Source: Neophaeotheca triangularis
Lineage: Eukaryota
Length of the DNA stretch: 64,000 nt
Assembly (NCBI GenBank): GCA_054600435.1
Contig: BAAIJX010000029.1
Location: forward strand, 186,001-250,000
Direction: 5' to 3'
Notes under the pieces: generated by a model
Seen by the model: the letters and a program-made list of their open reading frames with translations, nothing else
Database searches by the model: none
What the model was told of the DNA's origin: nothing
Shown here: in pieces, positions 1-57,666 of the stretch
Position numbering within the stretch: the stretch's first letter is position 1
How the letters are laid out: every line of letters begins with the position of its first letter
Made by a program: the position numbers and the translations under genes

Positions 1-1198
1 AACGACCAACGATGGTGGGAATGGTTGGTATCAGGTTGCAGCCCAGTAAGAGAACAGAAACACTCATTCTCACTGGCCAACGCTACCTCTTGAAGAACCC
101 AGAGCCTCCTGCAAGATGTTAACGCTGTTTGCCTGCACTTTATCATGGGGTGACTTACTGGAACCATGGTAACGCTAGTACATTCAATAGCGCATCTTGA
201 TACTGCGTTGTCAAACCTGGGCTGGCTCTCCTGAAACCACCCTGGAAGAGAGCATCCGAGAAATCCCCTGAATTTCCAAGTGCGGCGGTATTGGTAATGC
301 GATGCGTCAGTTCCCTGACTGCCACTGCCACCAGTGAAGCGTCGTGTTCGCCAAGGAATATGAGATTCCGGCGACTTCGCCGGTATATCAAGCCCATGAG
401 TTTGATCTGACTGCTTTTCTCTACGTTGTCCTCCTGAAGGATGCAGATGGCGTCGATCCAAAGCATGCGGTCGTGTCTTTCATCTCGCATACACCTCAGC
501 GCTGCGTAAGAACTGGCTGGTACGTCCGTTGGCATGAAATCTTCTCGTGTGCCCACAGGGGTGTCTACGAGGAATATAGTCTCTCGACTTGTGGCGTCGC
601 CCCAAAAATAGGATATCGTCTCGTAACTAGCCGAAGCAGCCATATCCACGTACACGAACCTTGCGCGAATTGGTTGGTCCCAACGGCCAGCTAGCACTTG
701 CAGTAACCTAATCTCCTTTCTCCGAACACGAAGGGGTCGATATGGTGGGGCTTTGCAGGCTTTCCATACGTATCTCCTGGATCGAATCTCCGCGAGCAAG
801 GTTGACCCATCGAACAAATGTATATTCGTGTGGAACACGTCGAGGACCGAAAGAGAAGAAGGCGTTAACTCAGGGTACGTTGCAACTGCTAGCAGCCTTC
901 CTTCGAGCGGAACTTCACCATGTATCCATGAAGTCAGTGGTAGGGACAAGCATCTCTCGTAAAGGCGAACGCCTTTGCTCTCTACGCTCATGCGTATGGT
1001 GGCTTCACCATCGTTCTGCTTGAATAGTCTTGCCGACAACTGATTCTCCTCCCCGTATTTTATGTTAGCAGGCTTTAGTATTGTCTCAAAACCAAACGAA
1101 AATCTGGGAAAGGGAGTGTAACAGATACCGGATTCATCGACGTAGGTAAATTCCACGCTCCGGCGTCGGACGGGAGCTCTACGCGGAAGCGAGGCCAT
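1..1198 (-). CDS. HET (heterokaryon incompatibility, HET-6-like) domain protein; 3' end runs off the window
   Basis: Likely ATG at 1198 (MASLPRR). HET motifs EIRLLQV, YETISYFWG, LWIDAICILQED..EKSSQIKLMGLIY. Intron 158-109 (GTAAGT...TTAAC...CAG) restores WFQRLWVLQEVALA. Confidence 0.9.
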
Positions 1199-1499
1199 GC
1201 TCTTGCCGAAAAAAAAAAAAAGGAATGGAAGACAGGAACGCGCTCGGAGCTGGCAGTTCAAGACTGTTATAGGCAGGTGCTGCAGGCTGCAGCGACAGCT
1301 CCACGCCACTTCGCTTGAGCTGTTCGCTTCGCCACAATGCATGCATGTCACAAGGCCAACGAAAAAAATGCAAACCAACCTTGGCTAGTAAATACCTATA
1401 CCATACCCACTTCGAGACCAACTTGAAGATCCACCAAACACGACCATGTGCCAAAAAAATAAAAACTAGGGAAGAAAAGAAAAAACACCTCAAGCCTGC

Positions 1500-16582: not shown

Positions 16583-19500
16583 CTAGGTGGAGCCGGCGGA
16601 GCTCCGTCTTCTCCTTCCCCCGCGTTGGTGGTCACGACCTCGACGTCGCCGATCGCGTATAATACAAGCAGGCAAGCGAAGGCGGCGGCGAAGTAGCAGA
16701 TCAGCATCCTGGTGATAGCGCCGGGAATACCCTTCCCCCTGGTGATCTTTGCCCTCTTCACTTTCGGACTGCGCCCGTTCCACCTTGGTCGCAAACTGCT
16801 CGAGCTTTGCGCGCGCCGCAGGAATTAGAGACAAGCCTCGAAGCCAGGTGCGTTCTTGACTGCCTTGTTCGTTAGACGCTTCGCTCAGTCTTTCTTCAAA
16901 CTTTTCGGAGGCGTCGATTATCAAGCCCACCGAGGAAAGAAACGGTATAGGCGTGAATAAGATGGAGTGGTACTCCTTGCTGATCTCTGGAAACTTGTGT
17001 TTGGAAAATGGGTAGTCCACCCTAATCACGTATTCGCTTCGTAGCCTCAGACCACAGCAAGCCGAATCACTCCCTCTCCGGATCCGCATAAGAGGATGTG
17101 CATGCTTCGGAATCCAAGGGGGATCGTATCGCGCTCCTGATTGTAAGAGTATCTTGATTGTGCTTGTGAGATCGGCCCCAATTTGCCAGTCACCCCCTCC
17201 CCATGTGCTTTCTGCTGCCCGATACAGAGGCGTCGCACCTTCTATGCTCTTTGAGTTGACATCGACCTGGCTTAGGATGAGTCGTAAAACAGTTTTGGGG
17301 TGCCGTGCCCAGGCTGCCCAATGCAGAGGTGTCCTCCCTCGGTCGTCCATAGATTCAACATCGACGCTCGTCTCTAAAAGCAGTTCAACGACAAATTGAT
17401 GCCTTTTAGCTGCTGCGTAAGACAGCGGTGTCCTTCCTCCGCCATCCTTGGAATCAACGTCAACGTCCGTCTGTAAGAGCAGCCGGACGATTGCCTCGTG
17501 TCCCTTCTCTGCTGCCCAAGACAGAGGTGTCCTTCCTCCGCCATCCTTGGAATCAACGTCAACTTCCGTCTGTAAGAGCAGCCGGACGATTGCCTCGTGT
17601 CCCTTCTCTGCTGCCCAAGACAGAGGTGTCCTTCCTCCGCCATCCTTGGAATCAACGTCAACGTCTGTCTGTAAGAGCAGCCGGACGATTGCCTCGTGTC
17701 CCTTCTCTACTGCCCAAGATAGAGGTGTCCTTCCTCCGCCATGCTTAGAATTAACATCGACGTCCGTCTGTAAGAGTAGCTGGACGATTGCCTTGTGTCC
17801 ATTGTCTGCTGCGTAAGACAGAGGTGTCCTTCCTCTGCTATCCTTAGGATTAACGTCGACCTTGCCCGTATGTAAGAGCAGCCGGACGGTTGCTTCGCAT
17901 CCCTTCTCTACTGCGAGAGATAGCGGTGTCTTTCCCCAGTAGTCCTTAGAACCAACTTCGACCTTCCCCGTCTGTAAGAGCAGCTGGGAAACTGCTTTAC
18001 GTCCCTTCTCTACTGCAAGATCTTTTCGGAGGGATAGCAGTGTTCTGAATCCCCAACCATCATCGGCGGCCCACCTTGTCCCTACTGCGAAAGATAGCGA
18101 AGTCTGTCCCCAGTGATCCTTAGAATTAATGTCGACCTTCCCCGTCTGTAAGAGCAGTTGAACAACCCCTTCGCGGCCAAAATCTGCTGCGTAAGATAGC
18201 GGTGTCCTCATACTCTCAGCCCTCGAATCGACGTCGACCTTCTCTTCCTGCAAAAGCAGCTGAACGACTACTTCGTGTCCCTTTTGTGCTGCGTAAGATA
18301 GCGGTGTCCTCCAGTACCGATCCCTCGAATCGACGTCGACCTTCTCTTCCTGCAAAAGCAGCTGAACGACTACTTCGTGTCCCTGGCTTGCTGCCCAGGA
18401 CAGCGGTGTTCTCCCACTCTTATCCCTCGAATCAGCGTCGACCAAGTCAGTACCTAGAAGTATTCCAACAACCACCCCACGCCCATACTCGGCGGCGTGC
18501 GATAAGGGTGTCCTATCCTGACTGTCCAGAACATCAACCGGCTGCTCAGTTTTGCACAAGGCTTCCGAAAGTGGCGCAGCGCCTAAGCGTGCCAGCAAAT
18601 GCATACCACTTGTATCGCGGTAGAGATTATACCTGTAGCAATGTCTGGTTAAGAAATCCCAGGCTTCTGTTGCAGAAACGACCAGACTCTTGTTCTTCAA
18701 TAAGCACAACGAGGCGCTTGTTACAGTTTTGTCTCCCGGCTGATACGCATCTGAAACATGGCCAGACCAACGCAAAGCAGAATATTCCAGAAGCGGATAC
18801 TCCGAGGACCTGCGCAAAAACTCAGTATCATCCCAGTCAACGCCGGGAGCCTGCGCAAACGGCTCCAAAGACAGGTATCTGATACATTTGAGTGCAATGA
18901 TGGAGTCTGCGTAAGGAATCCACCTTTCCTACTGCTCTTCAAAGAATTTCTGAGCTGTGTAATGCACCAGTCGTACCACATCACGTTCTTCGTCTAGGAT
19001 GAGCAAGCCAGCGCAGACCGAGAGGACAAGGTCAACCTTGCAGATGTTGTCGTGAAGATCGCGGACGGAGAGAAGAGTCAACTCAGGTGTGGTCGCGTTG
19101 ATGTCGACTTCAACGGCGAGTGCGTGCTCCAATTCTTCTCTTGACAAAAGTTTCCGGGCCCGGACTACCAGAGACAGTGCTTCTATTGCAAGAGCACGAT
19201 GCTGTTTGTTCTGGTTTTGTATTCGCTCCATAGTTTTCACGTACGCATCAGAGTAAAGCTCGGTGTCTGGATCTTTCGGAAGGGCTTCAAGAGCACGTTT
19301 GACTTTGAGTGTTGTCGTGCACTCCTTGATTGAGCCCATATAGAGTTGTGCAAGCAGGAATCTGTAGGAGGTTAGCACTAGCCTTGTAAGGTGGTCCAAA
19401 ACTGCAATGTATACTTACATCCCTTCGACGGCTGGGATGATAGTCTTGATGATCAGCTCCCGCAAGGATTGTTCTTTCTGCACGGATTGTGGGAGATCCT

Positions 19501-20785
19501 TCATGTTGGCCTCCAGATACCTGGCCACGTCGGGATCAGGTGCTTGCACTCTCAATTTGGGACACTTCGTAAACTTTTCGAGGATGTTTGGAACAGGACG
19601 AGTCGTCACTAGTAGATGCAATGAGCCACCGGCTTGCTGCTCTCGAATGACATCTAAGATCTCTTCTCGTACGTCCGCCTGGCACTCATCGAGAGCGTCG
19701 AGGACGATGTGTACTTTTCTGAATGCTCGGAGGAGAGCAGAGAATGCTTGTTTCAGCTCTTCTCGAAGCGGGCGCCGGGTTCCCAGATGGTGTTGGAATA
19801 GCTGCTTGATCGAAGCTGGGACATCCACTCTGAAGCAGAGCATTTGTCTGATCAAAGCTCCAAGCAGATGGTCAGTCGTCTGCTCATGTTTGGTCTTGTA
19901 TGTAAAGAACAGGTATATAACTGCAACACTAGAGCTCTTCGGAACTTGGAGCAACTCGTGAATCACGGTTGCGGCCATGACTGTTTTACCGGCACCTGGC
20001 GGTCCCGGGGAAACTAGAGTGGTCACATCACCTCTTGACCACGCCTCGTACGAGGGGGCTTCCAAAAACCAGAGACCTGTGCCTTCCTGTTTCCTGCGAT
20101 GGATGTCGTTCAACTGCTGACTATAGTCTTGGTCACAGAACCATACGAGCATGTCCTTCAAGTCTGCCAGTTCCTGCTCCGTGCGAAACTCCTTGCTCAT
20201 GGCCTCCGCGGTGATTTTGACCGATCTGATCAACTTTTCCGTCGCTGACACGCCTGCGCTAATGGATGGAAGCTGACCAAGAGCGTCGTCCAGGGTATCA
20301 AAGCCATCCACCAGTCTCTCGTCCACGGCTCGCAGAAGTTGGTGCATGTCGGTCGCCGTATCCAATTGCAGCAAGCCCACAGCCATTTCAAGCTCGTCGC
20401 GACATGCCTCTACGTGCCCTCTGATGGCTGTGACGGTGCCTTTTCGAAATGGGTAGCAGGATTTGCGGCCATGTGCCTTGAGCTTGTCCCACGCCGTCTG
20501 CGGTGTCTCTTGCTTGCGTATCTTCTCGAGAATGTCCCGAAGATCGTTGGCAGCATCGTTGCAGGATCCAAGTGCGCTGTAAAGCAAATCGGTAGCTTGG
20601 ACCGAGAGGCCAGGTTTGCGGACTATATCGCGTGACACCTTGAATGCTTGATGAAGCCACAGGAGGTGCTCCCTGACTTCTGCGACGTCCTTCTCGCAAT
20701 CTTTCCAGGTGCGGTAGTAATCGTACAATTGCTTCGTCACATCGAAAGCGAGAGTGGCCACGGCCAGGGCTGTGCCGGGGTCCAT
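16583..20785 (-). CDS. Fungal NLR/STAND protein: helical N-terminal (SesA/HeLo-like) domain, NACHT, ankyrin repeats; interrupted by an in-frame TAG at 18931-18929
   Basis: MDPGTALAVATLAF N-terminus, GTGLWFL, Walker A GPPGAGKT, Walker B IVLDALDEC, LLVTTRP, intron 19418-19362, VRLVHYTAQKFF, then more than 12 RTPLSxAA..GH ankyrin repeats in the same frame after the TAG. Confidence 0.88.
17420..17750 (-). repeat. Near-identical 99-bp tandem ankyrin-coding repeats (about 3.3 copies)
   Basis: RTPLSWA(A/V)EKGHEAIVRLLLQT(D/E)VDVDSKDGGG repeated with almost identical DNA. Confidence 0.9.
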
Positions 20786-23136
20786 GTTGTCTCTGAGCTG
20801 CCGCTGCGAGTCTGACCTCGATACGCAATCTCGGAGAGACAACCCAACGAGACAGAAGCTTCGTCCGATTCTCTGTTGGTTCCAAGACGAAAATATTGGG
20901 TATTTGATGGGCGCTTCTCCTTGGAAGTACTGACGCTGCAAGTTCGTGAGACGTCGCTTAGACAATGGTCGCTGATGTCGGAATCCTTGTTGTGTAGTAA
21001 AACTGGTTGTAAGGACGAGGGGGCAGCTCGATGAACGGGGAAGGTTTCCTACCTAGAGCTTAGGAGTACATCGATACACATAGTAAATGGGGTGCGAAGT
21101 GCATGCGCGAGTACACGATTCCCAGGGAGGGGGCTGTGGAAACATGCAAGGCTGAAGGATTGGGAAGCGGCTCACCAATCGATTGATGAGTGGTGTTTGG
21201 AGCTGACACCTCGCGTCAATACCAAGCTCGCTAAAAGACCAATGCAAACGAATCCATACCTACTACAGCAGGTGCTCAACCAAGTGTGGGCGCGCATTGT
21301 GAAGCTGCGGGTGCCTCTATCACGCACACTCAAGGGGAGCTCCGTTAGCAGTACCTATCAGGCTGCTAGGCGTGGCGGGGGCGAAGACTCAGCTCCAACC
21401 GTAGCATGCCGTTGCATCGAGCATGTTTCCTCGCGACTTGGGAAATGTTTGATCGGAGTGGTTTTGAAGATTGTAGGACGTTGTAAAGAAGCGGAAACCG
21501 ATGGCCGGGCCGACGGGCTGGCATGCTTATGCCGATCTCAACTCCTGATGGGGAGAGAATCCATCCTTAGGCTGTACGAGGTACATTGTAGAAAGACATT
21601 TACCGCTTCGTGCCCCACTTCCACACTCTTTGGTCGCCTAGGCCTCGAGCTGACTCGACCATTCCTTGCCCAGGGTGCATTTTGACGCCAAGTGGCCTAA
21701 TTGATGCGGTTCCCTGCGCCGCCACTCGAGGATCACGCAGCCAGCATGCAGCTCATACAGGCTACCTAGGTACAGTCGTGGACAGCTGCTGACAGAGGGC
21801 GAGATATTCACAGTGTCGAGTTTGAGGGTATATGCTCGATCATCGCCGTGTCGTTTACGTTTGGTGATTTCGGGCAAAGCGGCGATTTTAGTAGTGAGAT
21901 GCTCGAAAGATAACCACGGTCCAGTCCAGACTGACGAACCAGGTAGTATCCAAGGATTCCATGGCTGTTGTGGCACCAGCTATGCGTTCAACTTGCTTGT
22001 AGCTTCACCGGTCCTTGGTGGCTGGGGACTCTGTGGAGGAGAGTATCGTCACCATGCAGCAAATGCAAACGAGGCTATGCATTTGTGTCTAAAGATGTGT
22101 ATGGCTTTATGGAAGCCTCAGGCATGAATTTCCTCGTCTCGGCAAAGCCGGTGGGGGGATTCACTCTCGGTCGTAAATGTCGGTAGACAGTTCCCTCCTA
22201 TACAACAATCGATCCATTCCCTGAGAGCCGCAAAGGATCGGGGCAAGGTCAACCAAATCGAATCTAGAACCAGCAGTGGCCTCGCAACCCAAGGACATTG
22301 AGCTTCGACAGTCTACTGGTCAGGCGAATTCCTCCAATAAGAGCGTTCAAGATTCAGACCTTACATGTATTTCCAGTCTCATGTGATTAGATGTACAGCT
22401 GGAAGAAAGTCGTTGAGAGCCACACGTTGACCGCTGTATAGGGCGTGTTCCAAGGCTGCTGTGTAATGATGCTCGTTATCTACATCAACTTTTTACCTCG
22501 CAGTCACATCGCCCTCGCTCAGGACAGTCCGAAACCAAAGGATCCCGTCATTCGGCACTTCGATACAGTCCTGCTACGGTTTTAAGTGTTCGGAATGCAT
22601 TGTTAAGGCTTAATCGTACACTCCCACGAACATGCTTGCCCGCGGACCAGAAGCGTTGCGTGAGAACAAAGCGAGGCAACCCGCGGTTCCTTCGAAATGC
22701 CAAATTCCGGACCCTTGTCTTACAAAGATACCAACGCTCTATCGTAGATAGACTTTGCTCTCTGCGTTTGTAGCGGACACCGGAACGAATGGAAAGGGCT
22801 TGGCGGTCTAATAAAGCAGTGGCGAGCTGAGTACGCAGCTTAGCGGTTCGAGTGCTCCTCTCGCGTAGCATGTCGTCATGTAGGGCGTGACTAGGAATAG
22901 CGGGAGCAGTCTGGTTGTCTTGCATACTGAAAATGCGAGCTGCCAGTTGCGTTGGATCCTGCTGAAGTAGGAGGCTTGCCGGGAGCGATTGATGCAGCGT
23001 CGATATGTTTCCAAGTGTTCCCTCGTCCAAAGCCGGCTGAGAACAAGTGGAGTCGACAATGTAATCGTAAGCGAGACTTCTTTTTCCTCTTCGCAGCTCC
23101 GTTTCCTCCTTCGCAGCTCGAACCTCCTGCTTCCAA

Positions 23137-53076: not shown

Positions 53077-54254
53077 TCACACTTCCCCCTGCGCCCCACC
53101 CGCATTCTGCGCCATACGCATAAAACACCTCCGATACCCCTCATGCACCTCGGGAACCTCAAACCCCCACTCCCTAACCATATCGCAAAACTTACTACTA
53201 TCCAACTCACAATTACTCCTCGGAGCAACGACAGCCCCCGCCTGCACCGCCAACTGCACCCCGTGATCCGCATCCTCATCGTCGGTGAAATTCCTCCACT
53301 CCAGCTCAGGCTTGACATACTCCTTCAAAAGCGCCATAACCGCATTATGCGAGATGGCGCCGGGATTGGTGAAATTAAAAACCCCCTCGACGCCCCTCTC
53401 CGCCACCGCCAGCGCCGGCGGCAGCAGGTCGTGCAGGATCGTGTTGGAGTTGGCAATGTTGACCAGCCGCTCGTAGCGCGCGATTTTGCTCACGAAGCTG
53501 CGCGCGTGCAGGTCGTCTGAGACGGGCATCCGCACTCGGAGAATTAGCACCCGTGGGTAGTCGGCTAGCATCGCTTCGGCGTAGATTTTCGTTCGGCTGT
53601 AGTAGCTGCCGCTGAAGTTTGGGGGGTCGTTTTCCGTGAAGGGCGCGTTGGTTGGGGGCCCTGTGTTGGGGGGTGGGTGGGCGTAGTTGTAGTGGTAGAT
53701 GCCTATTTTTGGGGCGAGGGGCAGGGGGTTAGAAGGGGGGTCTATTTGGAGATTGTGGCTGTTTGGGCGTTGGACCGGGGGGGTTGGGGTGGAAAGGGAG
53801 ATTTGTGAGTTTGGGGCTGGTCACACTAGCCAGGGGTTGGAGAACAAAGCTTTCAGAAGGAAGTGTAGTGATATGGCAAGGGAGGGAGAAACTAACAGCC
53901 CGTGGCAAAAAGCGTCAAATGCACTCCCAACTCCCTACACGCGGCTGCCAACACCAACGGACCAGTCACATTCGCCTCGACCGTCTCATTCTTCAAAACC
54001 TCACACTGGTCGATGTTCGGCCGTCCGGTGAAGCCCGCCGCGCAGACTACGTTCCTGGGAGCGTAAGTCCGCAGCACCTCGCGCACCTCGGCGTCGTGGT
54101 GCATTCGCACGCCGCAGACGACGACCGTCTTGCCTTGTGCGATCAGCAAGTCGGCGAGCTTGGTGGCGATCCAGCCGCCTAGGCCCCAGATTAGCCAGAC
54201 TTCGGCTTCGGGGGGGCCTTGGTGGATTTCGAGGAGGGAGGGGTTGATGGGCAT
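53077..54254 (-). CDS. UDP-4-keto-6-deoxyglucose 3,5-epimerase/4-reductase (NRS/ER, RmlD-like; UDP-rhamnose synthesis)
   Basis: WLIWGLGGWIA, AAGFTGRPNIDQCE, ANVTGPLVLA, FATG, intron 53896-53703, CIY, FTENDPPNFSGSYYSRTK (YxxxK), LRVRMPVSDDL, FNFTNPGAISHN, APRSNCELD. Confidence 0.93.
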
Positions 54255-54576
54255 TTTTGGTGAGTTTGATTAGGGTGGGCGAGGTGATGTTTGGAGGGAA
54301 GGGCGGGCACCGCAAAAATGTTTTAGATGGATGGTTTTGGTCAGGCGCTTGCTCTTTGTATGTGCTACGTGAAAGGGAGCCAGCCACCCGCAAGGAGTGC
54401 CGGCTCGGAGCAAGGAGGCGCATACCAGTCGCCTCGACTTTAAACTAAAGGGCTGATTGTGATTGGAAGTGAGTTGGAAGAGACTGCATCATTCCGTCGC
54501 GATGTTGCTCTTGAAGACCCTCAATGCTACGCCAGCTTGCAGCAAGGAGGCGCATACCAACACTCACCCTTTCAAA

Positions 54577-55812
54577 TCACTTCCCCACCCGTCGGTGCAT
54601 GACGACCGAATACCTGCATGGACCCGTAAGTAAGGGACGGGAAGAAAGGGATGAGTCCAACTCACGCGACGATGCCGCCAACCGCCAAAACCACTCCCAG
54701 CAGACTACCATCCTTGAGCGGCTTCCCGCTATACAGCCACCCGAGCGCAACAATCGAGCACGTCTTGAAATGCCCCACGACAGTGCTACTGACGGGTCCA
54801 GCCTCGTTGATGATGAAAAACTGCGAGAGATTGATGAAGCAAGCCAGAACGCCGCTCTGTCGGGAGAAAAAACACGTAAAACCCGTCAGCGGCGCGCTTT
54901 CACCCTTTTTCCTCGGGTGGGAGTGTACTCACCAGCCCGATGAGCGCAAAAGTGCCTCCCCCAGTCTCGCTCCAGACTGTCACGTCGTCGGCGAAAGGGA
55001 TGACGTAGAGCATCACCAACACGCTAACCGGTGCCTGGTTGAGCAGCAATTGCATGCTCGTGCACGCCAGACTCTTGTGGTATTTGGCGATCCAGACGGT
55101 GTAGACGGAGCTGGCTAGGACGCCGCTGAGAGCGAAGAAGACTCCCAAAGGCGTGGTGGTTTTTGTGGCAGCACCCTCGGCGGTGGCGGGAGCGGTGTCG
55201 AAGTAGGAGACCACGGCGACGCCGACGCAAACGGGGAGCAGGGTCAGGGCTGCTTGCAGAGGGATGACGGCGCGGGAGATGAGGTAGTTGAGGACGACGA
55301 CGCAAGGGGTCAGTAGGACGCGGGCGACTTGGTAGAATTGGATGGAAGAATAGGCGAGGGAAGCGTTGGGCAGGACGACGTTGAGGATCATGGCGAGAGC
55401 GAGGGGTAGGATGGTGAGTTTGTCGACTGGCTTGGGTTGGAAGAGGTTGAGGCGGTTGGGGCGGGAAAGGGTGTAGAGGAGCGCGGCGGTCGTGGCGAAG
55501 TGGAAGGCTGCAAAGGTGACTTGGATGTGTTTGAGGCGTGGGTTGCTGAAGATGTGCTTGTTGACGAAGACCTGGTGGGCGTGGAGCTGTTAGTGCTGTG
55601 CAGTTGAAGGTGTAGGTTTTCTTGCTTCCTACTATGCCTGCTGTGGCGATGCAATTAACCGCAGCGCTGACCCAGAATCGTCGGCTCAAGGCTTCGGACT
55701 GCGGTTTGGCCATTTCGGCCGGCTCCTCATGGCGAGGAAGAAACACCTTTTCCTCATCCAGCTCGTATTCTTCGCGCATCTCGCGCTCGTTCTGCTTGAA
55801 TGCGATTCTCAT
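54577..55812 (-). CDS. Nucleotide-sugar transporter (TPT/SLC35E3, URGT/GlfB-like)
   Basis: Four exons: AVNCIATAGI / VFVNKHIF..VTFAAFHFATT..LPNASLAYSSIQFYQVARVLLTP..QLLLNQAP / SGVLACFINLSQFFII..GPVSSTVVGHFKTC / AYSVVMHRRVGK*; multiple hydrophobic helices. Confidence 0.9.
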
Positions 55813-56023
55813 CTTGTCGCCTAGAAGGTGTAGATTTGAAGAACAAACGCCAAAGACCACTCAACCGGAACGTAGAGGCCGCATTCCTCACGCGTCGTCA
55901 ATTGCAAGACTCGCATCCCTTGCGAAAAACAATCAAAGCCATCGCGTTGACGTCTCTAATGGCGTATTCAAATAGAGACGGATAGGTTGCGAAAGCGCAA
56001 GGAGCAAAGGTGAAAGCGACGAT

Positions 56024-57666
56024 ATGGCTCCATCAATCCCTGGCTGGAACACCTCAGGTATGAAGGGTGTATGCCCTATAATTCCCCGACTGACACGCTC
56101 CAGACCCGACAAGCCTCAGTGCACGCTTCTTCGAAGACGATGGTCTGTGGAAGGAAGCACCGCTATTGACGGGCCACACCCGTTTCGAGCCCCTTCCAGA
56201 CGTCCGGAACATCTTGGTAACGGGCGGCGAGGGTTTCATGTGAGTCCCATAGTCCCCGAGCAGGATGCTTCGAGGGCGGCACCAAGGACATGACCTAACA
56301 GTCCAACGCAGCGGCTCCTGGCTCGTCCGGCACCTAGTCCTGCAATACCCGCACGCCTACAACATCATCTCGTTTGACAAACTCGACTACTGCAGCTCCC
56401 GGCACAACTCCCGCATGCTCTCATCGCGGCCGAATTTCAAATTCATCCACGGCAACCTGCTCAACGACGCTGACCTCCTCAAATGCCTCGTAGACTGCCA
56501 AATCGACACCGTCTTCCACCTGGCCGCGCACACGCACGTCGATCTCAGCTTTGGGAATTCCTACGACTTTACGGTGAACAATGTTATCGGGACGCATAAG
56601 CTGCTGCAGTGTATTAAGCAGGTGGGGAGTGTGAAGAGGTTTTTCCATGTCTCGACTGATGAGGTAGGTGAAGGTGGCTTGGAAAAGTGTCGCTGGAGAG
56701 ATGACTTACCTGTCTGGTACTGCAGGTCTACGGCGAGGTTGAGAAGGATGGCGAGGATCTTGTCGAACACAGTTTGCTCGCACCCACCAACCCGTACGCC
56801 GCCAGCAAGGCCGCGGCCGAAATGATGGTGACGGCTTATGTCAAGAGTTGGGGACTTCCAACCACCATCGTCCGTCTGAACAACGTGTACGGTCCGCATC
56901 AGGTGAGTAGTGCTCTTTCCTGCTGGGAAACACCAGCCGGAATATGAAATCCAACTGACCTTAACCCACCCAAGTACCCAGAGAGTAAGAATCCACGACG
57001 CACTCACCTCCTCCCTCCCCAACTAACCCAAACCCCACAGAAATCATCCCCAAATTCATCAACCTCATAACCGCCAACCTACCCCTCCTAATCCACGGCG
57101 ACGGGCAACACACACGCCGCTACCTTCACGCAGGCGACGCCGCGAGCGCCTTCGACACGATCCTCCACCGCGGCGAATTGGGACAAATTTACAACGTCGA
57201 CTCGCGCGACGAACTCCCAAACTTGACTCTGGCGGCGAAACTGCTGCGGAATTTCGGCCTCGAACCAAACGCCGATTGGATCAAGCACACGGCTGATAGG
57301 CCTTTTAACGATCGTAGATATGCGGTTGATGGGAGTAAGCTGAGAGCGCTGGGGTGGGAGCAGAGGGTTGGGTTTGAGGAGGGGTTAGCGGGGACGGTCG
57401 AGTGGTATCGTAGGTTTAAGGGGTGGTGGGGAGATGTTTCGGGGGTCTTGACTGCTTTTCCTGTTGTCAGGGGGGACCATGTTGAGAAGGGGGTAGAGCG
57501 GGAGGGGGAGGCTGTGGAGGTGAAGAAAACGGAGGAGGCTGTAGTCGGCGCTGCTCAGCTTCAGGGCAAAATCAAGGAGGTGAAGTCGGTGGCGTCTTCC
57601 AATGGTCACGGCGGTTTGGCCGGGCAGCAGAAGAAGCGCAAAGCCACTGCCATGGAGGAGGATTGA
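56024..57666 (+). CDS. UDP/dTDP-glucose 4,6-dehydratase (RmlB-like; UDP-rhamnose synthesis)
   Basis: NILVTGGEGFIGS, FDKLDYCS, FHLAAHTHVDLSFGNS, HVSTDEVYGE, PTNPYAASKAAAE, RLNNVYGPHQ, YPEK (10-nt exon), IIPKF, IHGDG, DRPFNDRRYAVDGSKL. Five introns. Confidence 0.95.

Follow-up and report, generated by a model that had tools for sequence, protein, structure and literature searches.

Gene content and gene models of the locus

Within a 64,000-nt stretch of the genome of the black yeast-like fungus Neophaeotheca triangularis (the window hereafter), positions 53077..57666 hold three intact genes with introns, which we propose as a set for the synthesis and transport of UDP-L-rhamnose: an epimerase/reductase on the minus strand, a nucleotide-sugar transporter also on the minus strand, and a dehydratase on the plus strand. 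The two end coordinates are the outer stop codons of the trio. Spliced models were built from stop-to-stop open reading frames (ORFs) together with the window sequence, and support for the introns comes from their GT..AG sites, from the closed frames and from the match to orthologues and public models; all nine introns of the trio are GT..AG, with lengths of 46-194 nt, and all reading frames close. The features, with enzyme and transporter functions as predicted, are as follows.

53077..54254, minus strand: UDP-4-keto-6-deoxyglucose 3,5-epimerase/4-reductase of the NRS/ER type, 327 amino acids, in two exons (54254..53897, 53702..53077) with a 194-nt intron
54255..54576, no strand: spacer of 322 bp between the tandem minus-strand genes, from the transporter stop to the epimerase/reductase start
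54577..55812, minus strand: TPT/SLC35E3-like nucleotide-sugar transporter, 348 amino acids, in four exons (55812..55633, 55571..54933, 54856..54666, 54613..54577)
55813..56023, no strand: divergent intergenic region of 211 bp, from the transporter ATG to the dehydratase ATG
56024..57666, plus strand: UDP-glucose 4,6-dehydratase, 444 amino acids, in six exons (56024..56057, 56104..56239, 56312..56663, 56726..56902, 56975..56984, 57041..57666)

A first-pass annotation of this DNA had described the three genes as contiguous in this order and on these strands, with a divergent gap of about 210 bp, and the spliced models agree with it on the placement and give 211 bp from ATG to ATG. The divergent region presumably acts as a shared bidirectional promoter, and would thereby place the transporter and the dehydratase under shared regulation. 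No ORF with a family match was found in the spacer 54255..54576.

The dehydratase model equals the public annotation MBLNU230_g3827t1 (P0241 in our protein set) letter for letter. Its frame requires a micro-exon of 10 nt (56975..56984), flanked by introns of 72 nt and 56 nt, which supplies the residues YPEK and is also present in the public model. A GDP_Man_Dehyd/Epimerase match spans the whole catalytic part (Pfam GDP_Man_Dehyd, 223.8 bits), within which the motifs GGEGFIGS, TDEVYG and YAASK lie at 52, 172 and 198. Over 371 amino acids the protein is 64% identical to AEH41993.1 (P0518), named as the UDP-glucose-4,6-dehydratase of Pyricularia oryzae, which shares one 90% cluster with U46DH_PYROR. 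Judged by its Rossmann, TDE and YxxxK motifs and by its similarity to a named enzyme, the gene product is a predicted UDP-glucose 4,6-dehydratase, which differs from the Pyricularia enzyme in a low-complexity C-terminal tail of roughly 60 residues.

The epimerase/reductase is the most divergent member of the trio (about 52% identity to its orthologues). Its first exon matches Pfam RmlD_sub_bind at 36 bits (cut-off 27), the second exon alone gave no Pfam match at E<=0.01, and the motifs GLGGWIA (24) and YSRTK (154) are present. Identity is 51-52% over 297-319 amino acids to four proteins (P0240, P0178, P0232, P0199) that are named NRS/ER or UDP-4-keto-6-deoxyglucose epimerase/reductase, P0240 being the NRS/ER of Verticillium alfalfae; a short insertion (...DDEDADHGVQLAVQAGAVVAP...) sets it apart from these fungal enzymes, and it has diverged further than its neighbours. 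The RmlD-type domain, the glycine motif, the YxxxK motif and the similarity to named proteins together identify it as a putative NRS/ER. Its own protein was absent from the protein-search results, in which the best match reached 56% identity, and the ORF is intact; the public record may lack an annotation of the gene or give a different model of it. That a dehydratase and an NRS/ER make UDP-L-rhamnose in fungi is established (Martinez et al. 2012, as cited in PMC8092308 and PMC5698552).

The transporter model is 100% identical to a public protein (P0001) over all 337 amino acids of the latter, and its large exon is 100% identical to the NCBI protein MBLNU230_g3826t1. P0001 ends in ...GGIVA and is without the last, 37-nt exon (54577-54613, minus strand); with this exon the protein ends in ...GGIVAYSVVMHRRVGK, which matches the ...AYS... 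tail of the orthologues. In profile searches P0001, without that exon, scores 31.4 bits for EamA (cut-off 28.2) and 28.5 bits for TPT, a little below the cut-off of 30, and the orthologue P0004 scores 41.1 bits for TPT against the same cut-off. PF03151 is precomputed for many further orthologues. By way of the profile match of P0004, the transporter is assigned to the TPT (PF03151)/DMT superfamily. Its orthologues bear the automatic public names 'SLC35E3' or 'GDP-mannose transporter', and an Atlas look-up returned only generic transporter clusters.

An AlphaFold model of the transporter, computed on 33 orthologues, has a pLDDT (predicted local distance difference test) of 84.1 and a pTM (predicted template modelling score) of 0.78. 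The best Foldseek match is Candida albicans Vrg4 (9s36_A, E 6.2e-9, TM 0.74/0.78), and further matches are yeast Vrg4, the plastid TPT (5y78), SLC35B1 (9i20) and the CMP-sialic acid transporter (6oh3), with 34 chains at E<=0.001. Sequence and profile searches of the transporter alignment against PDB sequences gave no match, so that it was the fold comparison only that linked the protein to solved structures. The model thus predicts the ten-helix DMT fold of solved nucleotide-sugar transporters, and these matches point to a DMT-fold carrier of the nucleotide-sugar type. Two close copies of the transporter occur in Vermiconidia calcicola (LTR37_004612, LTR37_012832) and also, judging by several entries, in Hortaea werneckii; such black yeasts are known to have duplicated genomes.

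Linkage of the transporter to the two enzymes

Metagenome contigs of the JGI (Joint Genome Institute) were scanned with an alignment of 14 transporter orthologues, giving 112 pattern matches, 90 of which were confirmed; the best 80 were kept as loci (L-numbers below). Their transporter orthologues show 42-64% identity, and models of the epimerase/reductase and the dehydratase were searched for in each by tblastn. The dehydratase was found in 33 of the 80 loci, in all 33 on the opposite strand upstream of the transporter (head-to-head), and the epimerase/reductase in nine. Most loci with neither enzyme have short flanks; where at least 5 kb of upstream sequence is available (29 loci), 21 have the dehydratase, three the epimerase/reductase only, and five neither. 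Since many contigs are near-duplicates, the loci were de-replicated on a transporter tree of 102 rows, made up of the window, 23 named proteins and the 78 loci left after removal of two with under 230 aligned residues, by merging those less than 0.10 substitutions per site apart. Twenty-four lineages keep at least 5 kb upstream, and within 10 kb of the transporter 17 of these have the dehydratase, six the epimerase/reductase, 20 either enzyme and four neither.

As a control for conserved neighbourhoods, all ORFs of at least 80 amino acids were clustered across the loci of at least 4 kb. The next commonest neighbour family is a methyltransferase located beyond the dehydratase (9/24 lineages), followed by the family DUF5672 (6/24), with all others in at most four; the rest of the flanking sequence consists of unrelated housekeeping genes, which vary between clades, and no other sugar-nucleotide enzyme recurs among the neighbours across lineages. 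The contiguity of the transporter with a UDP-rhamnose enzyme exceeds both chance and background synteny (20/24 lineages, compared with at most 9/24). The first-pass annotation had made its interpretation depend on such linkage being found in related genomes, and the linkage holds in these 20 lineages as well as in the named genomes described below.

Three arrangements are evident. In the clade of the window (Mycosphaerellales-like; L037, L040/41 and in part L005), the transporter is head-to-head with the dehydratase and is followed by the epimerase/reductase. In the largest clade, which includes the Sordariomycete proteins of Cytospora and Tolypocladium, it is head-to-head with the dehydratase and the epimerase/reductase is elsewhere; a head-to-head pair with the dehydratase alone is the majority arrangement. 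A separate clade (L025, L042, L046, L050) has the transporter head-to-head with the epimerase/reductase and no dehydratase within 10 kb. In one locus (L075) all three genes are interleaved with three DUF5672 genes over about 11 kb. That the transporter pairs with either enzyme speaks for a link to the pathway, as opposed to a link with one particular gene by descent.

Transporter and dehydratase or epimerase/reductase have consecutive locus tags or accessions in ten named species of Dothideomycetes and Sordariomycetes. Consecutive transporter and dehydratase tags occur in Neophaeotheca, Meristemomyces frigidus (LTR08_005335/6), Vermiconidia calcicola (LTR37_004612/3), Saxophila tyrrhenica (LTR77_003780/1) and Zasmidium cellare (PRZ48_009564/5), and consecutive accessions of the same pair in Zymoseptoria tritici (four strains), Z. 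brevis, Glonium stellatum and Cytospora mali var. pyri; in Oleoguttula mirabilis the transporter is consecutive with the epimerase/reductase. The two enzymes are two tags apart in Rachicladosporium and three in Thelocarpon superellum, and in Tolypocladium capitatum the transporter and the epimerase/reductase lie four accessions apart on a single 72.5-kb contig.

Several further neighbours were considered. ORFs in the 1.4-2.6-kb gaps between dehydratase and transporter were rejected as a hidden gene, as they differ between loci, and part of each gap is taken up by the first transporter exon and the N-terminus of the dehydratase. Vps18, squalene/phytoene synthase, DnaJ-X and one family without a Pfam match also recur and were judged incidental, the last of which looks, on reading its sequence, like a ribosome-biogenesis protein of the Brix/Rpf1 type. 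The methyltransferase is of the class I S-adenosylmethionine-dependent type (Methyltransf_23/25/31), exemplified by L052:4313-5488 (minus strand) and found also in L003/4, L027, L035, L036, L047, L051 and L060-62; a tblastn search for it in the window gave nothing better than E 0.5.

DUF5672 proteins beside the transporter in relatives

In 16 of the 80 loci, spread over at least three transporter clades, a DUF5672 gene (PF18922) lies directly downstream of the transporter in convergent orientation, at a distance of 0.7-1.7 kb. One or two additional copies often follow, giving one to three genes per locus. Loci with DUF5672 genes beside a transporter/dehydratase pair, often in two or three copies, include:

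L075:2098-13098
L061:11637-18033
L080:11931-19616
L078:2566-6909
L032:2127-6865

Among the 120 dehydratase homologues listed, four (P0265, P0276, P0289, P0322) join dehydratase and DUF5672 in single gene models of 669-863 amino acids with a hydrophobic segment between the two parts. They come from Sarea resinae and three lichen-forming Teloschistaceae (Villophora, Caloplaca, Xanthocarpia), and may be real fusions or merged neighbouring genes.

The DUF5672 family comprises 1,926 representative clusters at E<=0.001, mostly from ascomycetes and without names, and a literature search on it found no relevant paper. A structure model of a complete member of 303 amino acids (L075:12190-13098), built on 66 sequences, has a pLDDT of 90.6; residues 3-28 form an N-terminal helix, which a linker joins to a globular domain. 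Foldseek matched it at E about 1e-6 to glycogenin (3rmv, E 5.8e-7), BoGT6a (4ayl), UGGT (7zle), GnT-I (1foa) and GtrB, and VIA-align gave Z 11.3-12.7 over 173-221 residues for LARGE1, alpha-1,3-galactosyltransferase, B3GalT6, EXTL2 and Kre2. Searches of the DUF5672 ORF and of the DUF5672 alignment against PDB sequences and profiles found no match. In the alignment of 66 sequences Q162, D164, D182, E235 and D236 are nearly invariant, and no canonical DxD motif was assigned. The structure model predicts a membrane-anchored protein with the GT-A glycosyltransferase fold. Given such an anchor and fold beside pathway genes, the DUF5672 proteins are candidate rhamnosyltransferases, and since their topology would be that of lumenal Golgi transferases, they would need an imported donor. 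The rhamnosyltransferases Rht1 and Rht2 described for Sporothrix are GT-B proteins (PMC9145935).

A proposed route of UDP-rhamnose into the secretory pathway

We suggest that the trio is probably a module for the synthesis and delivery of UDP-L-rhamnose, with the transporter importing the nucleotide sugar for lumenal glycosyltransferases. The cytosolic dehydratase would convert UDP-glucose to UDP-4-keto-6-deoxyglucose; the epimerase/reductase would convert the latter to UDP-beta-L-rhamnose. The transporter, as a ten-helix DMT-fold antiporter in the membrane of the Golgi or the endoplasmic reticulum, would then take UDP-rhamnose into the lumen, probably in exchange for UMP, where glycosyltransferases would rhamnosylate glycoproteins or glycolipids; the 211-bp head-to-head region would allow synthesis and import to be switched on together. 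We infer UDP-rhamnose as the substrate from the gene neighbourhood only, and predictions likewise concern the counter-substrate, the membrane in which the protein acts and its regulation together with synthesis. A lumenal consumer is plausible because of the DUF5672 genes downstream of the transporter in 16/80 loci, whose products combine a membrane helix with a predicted GT-A domain. Published findings point to the need for a carrier: in PMC13429783 the membrane fraction accounts for more than 97% of rhamnosyltransferase activity. In the peptidorhamnomannan of Sporothrix, rhamnose is attached to O-linked glycans, and the accessible part of PMC4226871 lists genes for UDP-L-rhamnose and no transporter or obvious rhamnosyltransferase.

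On this basis, the transporter is the best candidate so far for the carrier of UDP-rhamnose into the fungal secretory pathway. It would add a new and well-supported candidate to a type of system already known, and synteny supports the interpretation. The first-pass annotation knew of no biochemically characterised fungal UDP-rhamnose transporter, in which our literature searches concur: neither such a transporter nor a description of this cluster was found, supplements aside, and Martinez et al. 2012 could have noted the adjacency.

Among known systems, the plant URGT proteins are, to our knowledge, the only characterised UDP-rhamnose transporters, and we know of no clustering of URGT genes with RHM or NRS/ER genes. 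Arabidopsis URGT1-6 are likened to the N. triangularis transporter by function, the predicted job in both being Golgi import of UDP-rhamnose by a member of the NST/TPT superfamily (NST, nucleotide-sugar transporter); the URGT substrates were demonstrated in proteoliposomes, whereas import by the transporter described here is a prediction. A parallel in gene arrangement is GlfB of Aspergillus fumigatus, a fungal TPT-type transporter of UDP-galactofuranose that we take to lie beside the gene for the cytosolic enzyme making its substrate, glfA. There the partner is a UDP-galactopyranose mutase, whereas here the partners are the dehydratase and the epimerase/reductase, and the two transporters are likened by description. 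In PMC5773217, GlfB is the closest relative of Cryptococcus neoformans Uxt1 and Uxt2, a group in which the SLC35E3-like fungal transporters are placed. Uxt1/Uxt2 and NST1 (MGG_06694) and NST2 (MGG_04030) of Magnaporthe oryzae, the best M. oryzae matches to Uxt1/Uxt2 (PMC10013753, in part), are fungal TPT-domain proteins of 370-400 amino acids and are likened to the transporter by annotation class, the SLC35E3-like class in which its orthologues also fall; the accessible text of the two reports does not place them beside rhamnose genes (PMC5773217, PMC10013753). The best structural match, the GDP-mannose transporter Vrg4 of yeast and Candida (5OGE, 9S36), has the same ten-helix DMT fold, but carries a GDP-sugar and has only 14-16% sequence identity to the transporter model.

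A number of observations weigh against assigning UDP-rhamnose to this transporter. Within the transporter class, specificity is not predictable from homology (PMC5773217), and given that relatives carry UDP-xylose (UDP-Xyl) and UDP-galactofuranose (UDP-Galf), homology does not reveal the substrate of the N. triangularis protein. For NST1 and NST2, the Uxt homologues of M. oryzae, growth tests in yeast gave a connection with mannose and glucose (PMC10013753). The linkage also has gaps: neither enzyme lies within 10 kb of the transporter in four of the 24 lineages (L074, L044, the L015/L019-22 group and L023), and outside the named genomes the taxonomic breadth is only indirect. In Pseudocercospora eumusae the pair is 17 tags apart (AC578_2225 and AC578_2208; both are listed with a longest contig of 125,352 bases), and in Valsa mali 60 accessions apart (KUI65037.1 and KUI64977.1; 5,395,810 bases for both), in contrast to the closely related Cytospora mali var. 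pyri. In each of the two genomes one contig carries both genes, and these non-consecutive numbers may be either an artefact of numbering or a real separation or rearrangement. Finally, the window itself has no glycosyltransferase candidate, with a tblastn search for DUF5672 giving nothing better than E 0.5.

Some of these points lead to a rather unlikely alternative that nevertheless deserves weight, in which the transporter is a general carrier or one for a different UDP-sugar (UDP-Galf, UDP-Xyl, UDP-galactose), UDP-rhamnose is at most one substrate, and the linkage reflects co-regulation of wall-glycan genes. Its closest characterised fungal relatives, Uxt1 and Uxt2, do carry UDP-Xyl and UDP-Galf, as well as UDP-arabinose in vitro (PMC5773217, in part), the plant URGTs are bifunctional for UDP-rhamnose and UDP-galactose (PMC10013753, PMC7752924, both in part), the orthologues are annotated as SLC35E3 or GDP-mannose transporter at source, and the four lineages without either enzyme fit with a carrier of wider use. 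Set against this, the dehydratase and the epimerase/reductase are the only neighbours conserved across lineages, no other enzyme of sugar-nucleotide metabolism recurring, and each of them forms an independent head-to-head pairing with the transporter. GlfB, unlike the transporter here, presumably keeps glfA as its neighbour.

The greater frequency of the dehydratase as partner (17 lineages, compared with six for the epimerase/reductase) would also suit a transporter of UDP-4-keto-6-deoxyglucose, or of a 6-deoxyhexose derived from it, that is finished or used in the lumen. In animals the intermediate made by TGDS acts in its own right to rescue UXS1 (PMC12488480, which names no transporter). 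We consider this very unlikely, because in a separate clade the transporter pairs with the epimerase/reductase alone (L025, L042, L046, L050); moreover, the trio stays together in the window and its relatives, and the intermediate is described as transient and toxic in Botrytis (PMC5698552, in part). Inherited gene order with no functional meaning, the transporter serving an unrelated pathway, appears similarly improbable. Fungal gene order can persist by descent, and the named cases are mostly Dothideomycetes; however, the neighbour control disfavours this explanation, since other flanks turn over while a dehydratase or epimerase/reductase gene stays, the same partners are joined in different arrangements, and the association extends to Sordariomycetes, with the pair present in Cytospora mali and the transporter near the epimerase/reductase in Tolypocladium.

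The proposal that the trio makes and imports UDP-rhamnose can be extended, more tentatively, to the DUF5672 genes. The window may possibly, in a reading that we hold as short of probable, represent a reduced form of an old Pezizomycotina cassette that, when fuller, combines the enzymes of UDP-rhamnose synthesis and a dedicated UDP-rhamnose/UMP antiporter with one to three DUF5672 proteins, which would be undescribed type II GT-A rhamnosyltransferases of the Golgi that build rhamnomannans and related glycans. If so, Rht1 and Rht2 would not be the whole story of fungal rhamnosylation.

Several fungal pathogens of plants and humans, among them Sporothrix, Scedosporium, Verticillium, Botrytis and Magnaporthe, bear rhamnose-containing glycans at their surface, which are important in virulence and in recognition by the immune system. 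Previous work established the two cytosolic enzymes of the pathway, but neither the route of UDP-rhamnose into the lumen, in which O- and N-glycans are assembled, nor, with certainty, the transferases. A transporter that adjoins the pathway genes in several arrangements across classes of the Ascomycota provides a single, well-defined candidate for this route, and the same neighbourhoods put DUF5672 forward as a candidate family of transferases; the linkage speaks against calling the transporter orthologues 'GDP-mannose transporter' or 'SLC35E3', as automatic annotation does. Since animals lack UDP-rhamnose, the pathway, the carrier and the transferases deserve attention as targets specific to fungi.

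Elsewhere in the window, a HET-domain ORF is located at 158-1384 (minus strand), and a pair of NLR-like ORFs at 16586-21052 (minus strand), with SesA/NACHT followed by a long ankyrin-repeat array, is typical of fungal non-self recognition genes.

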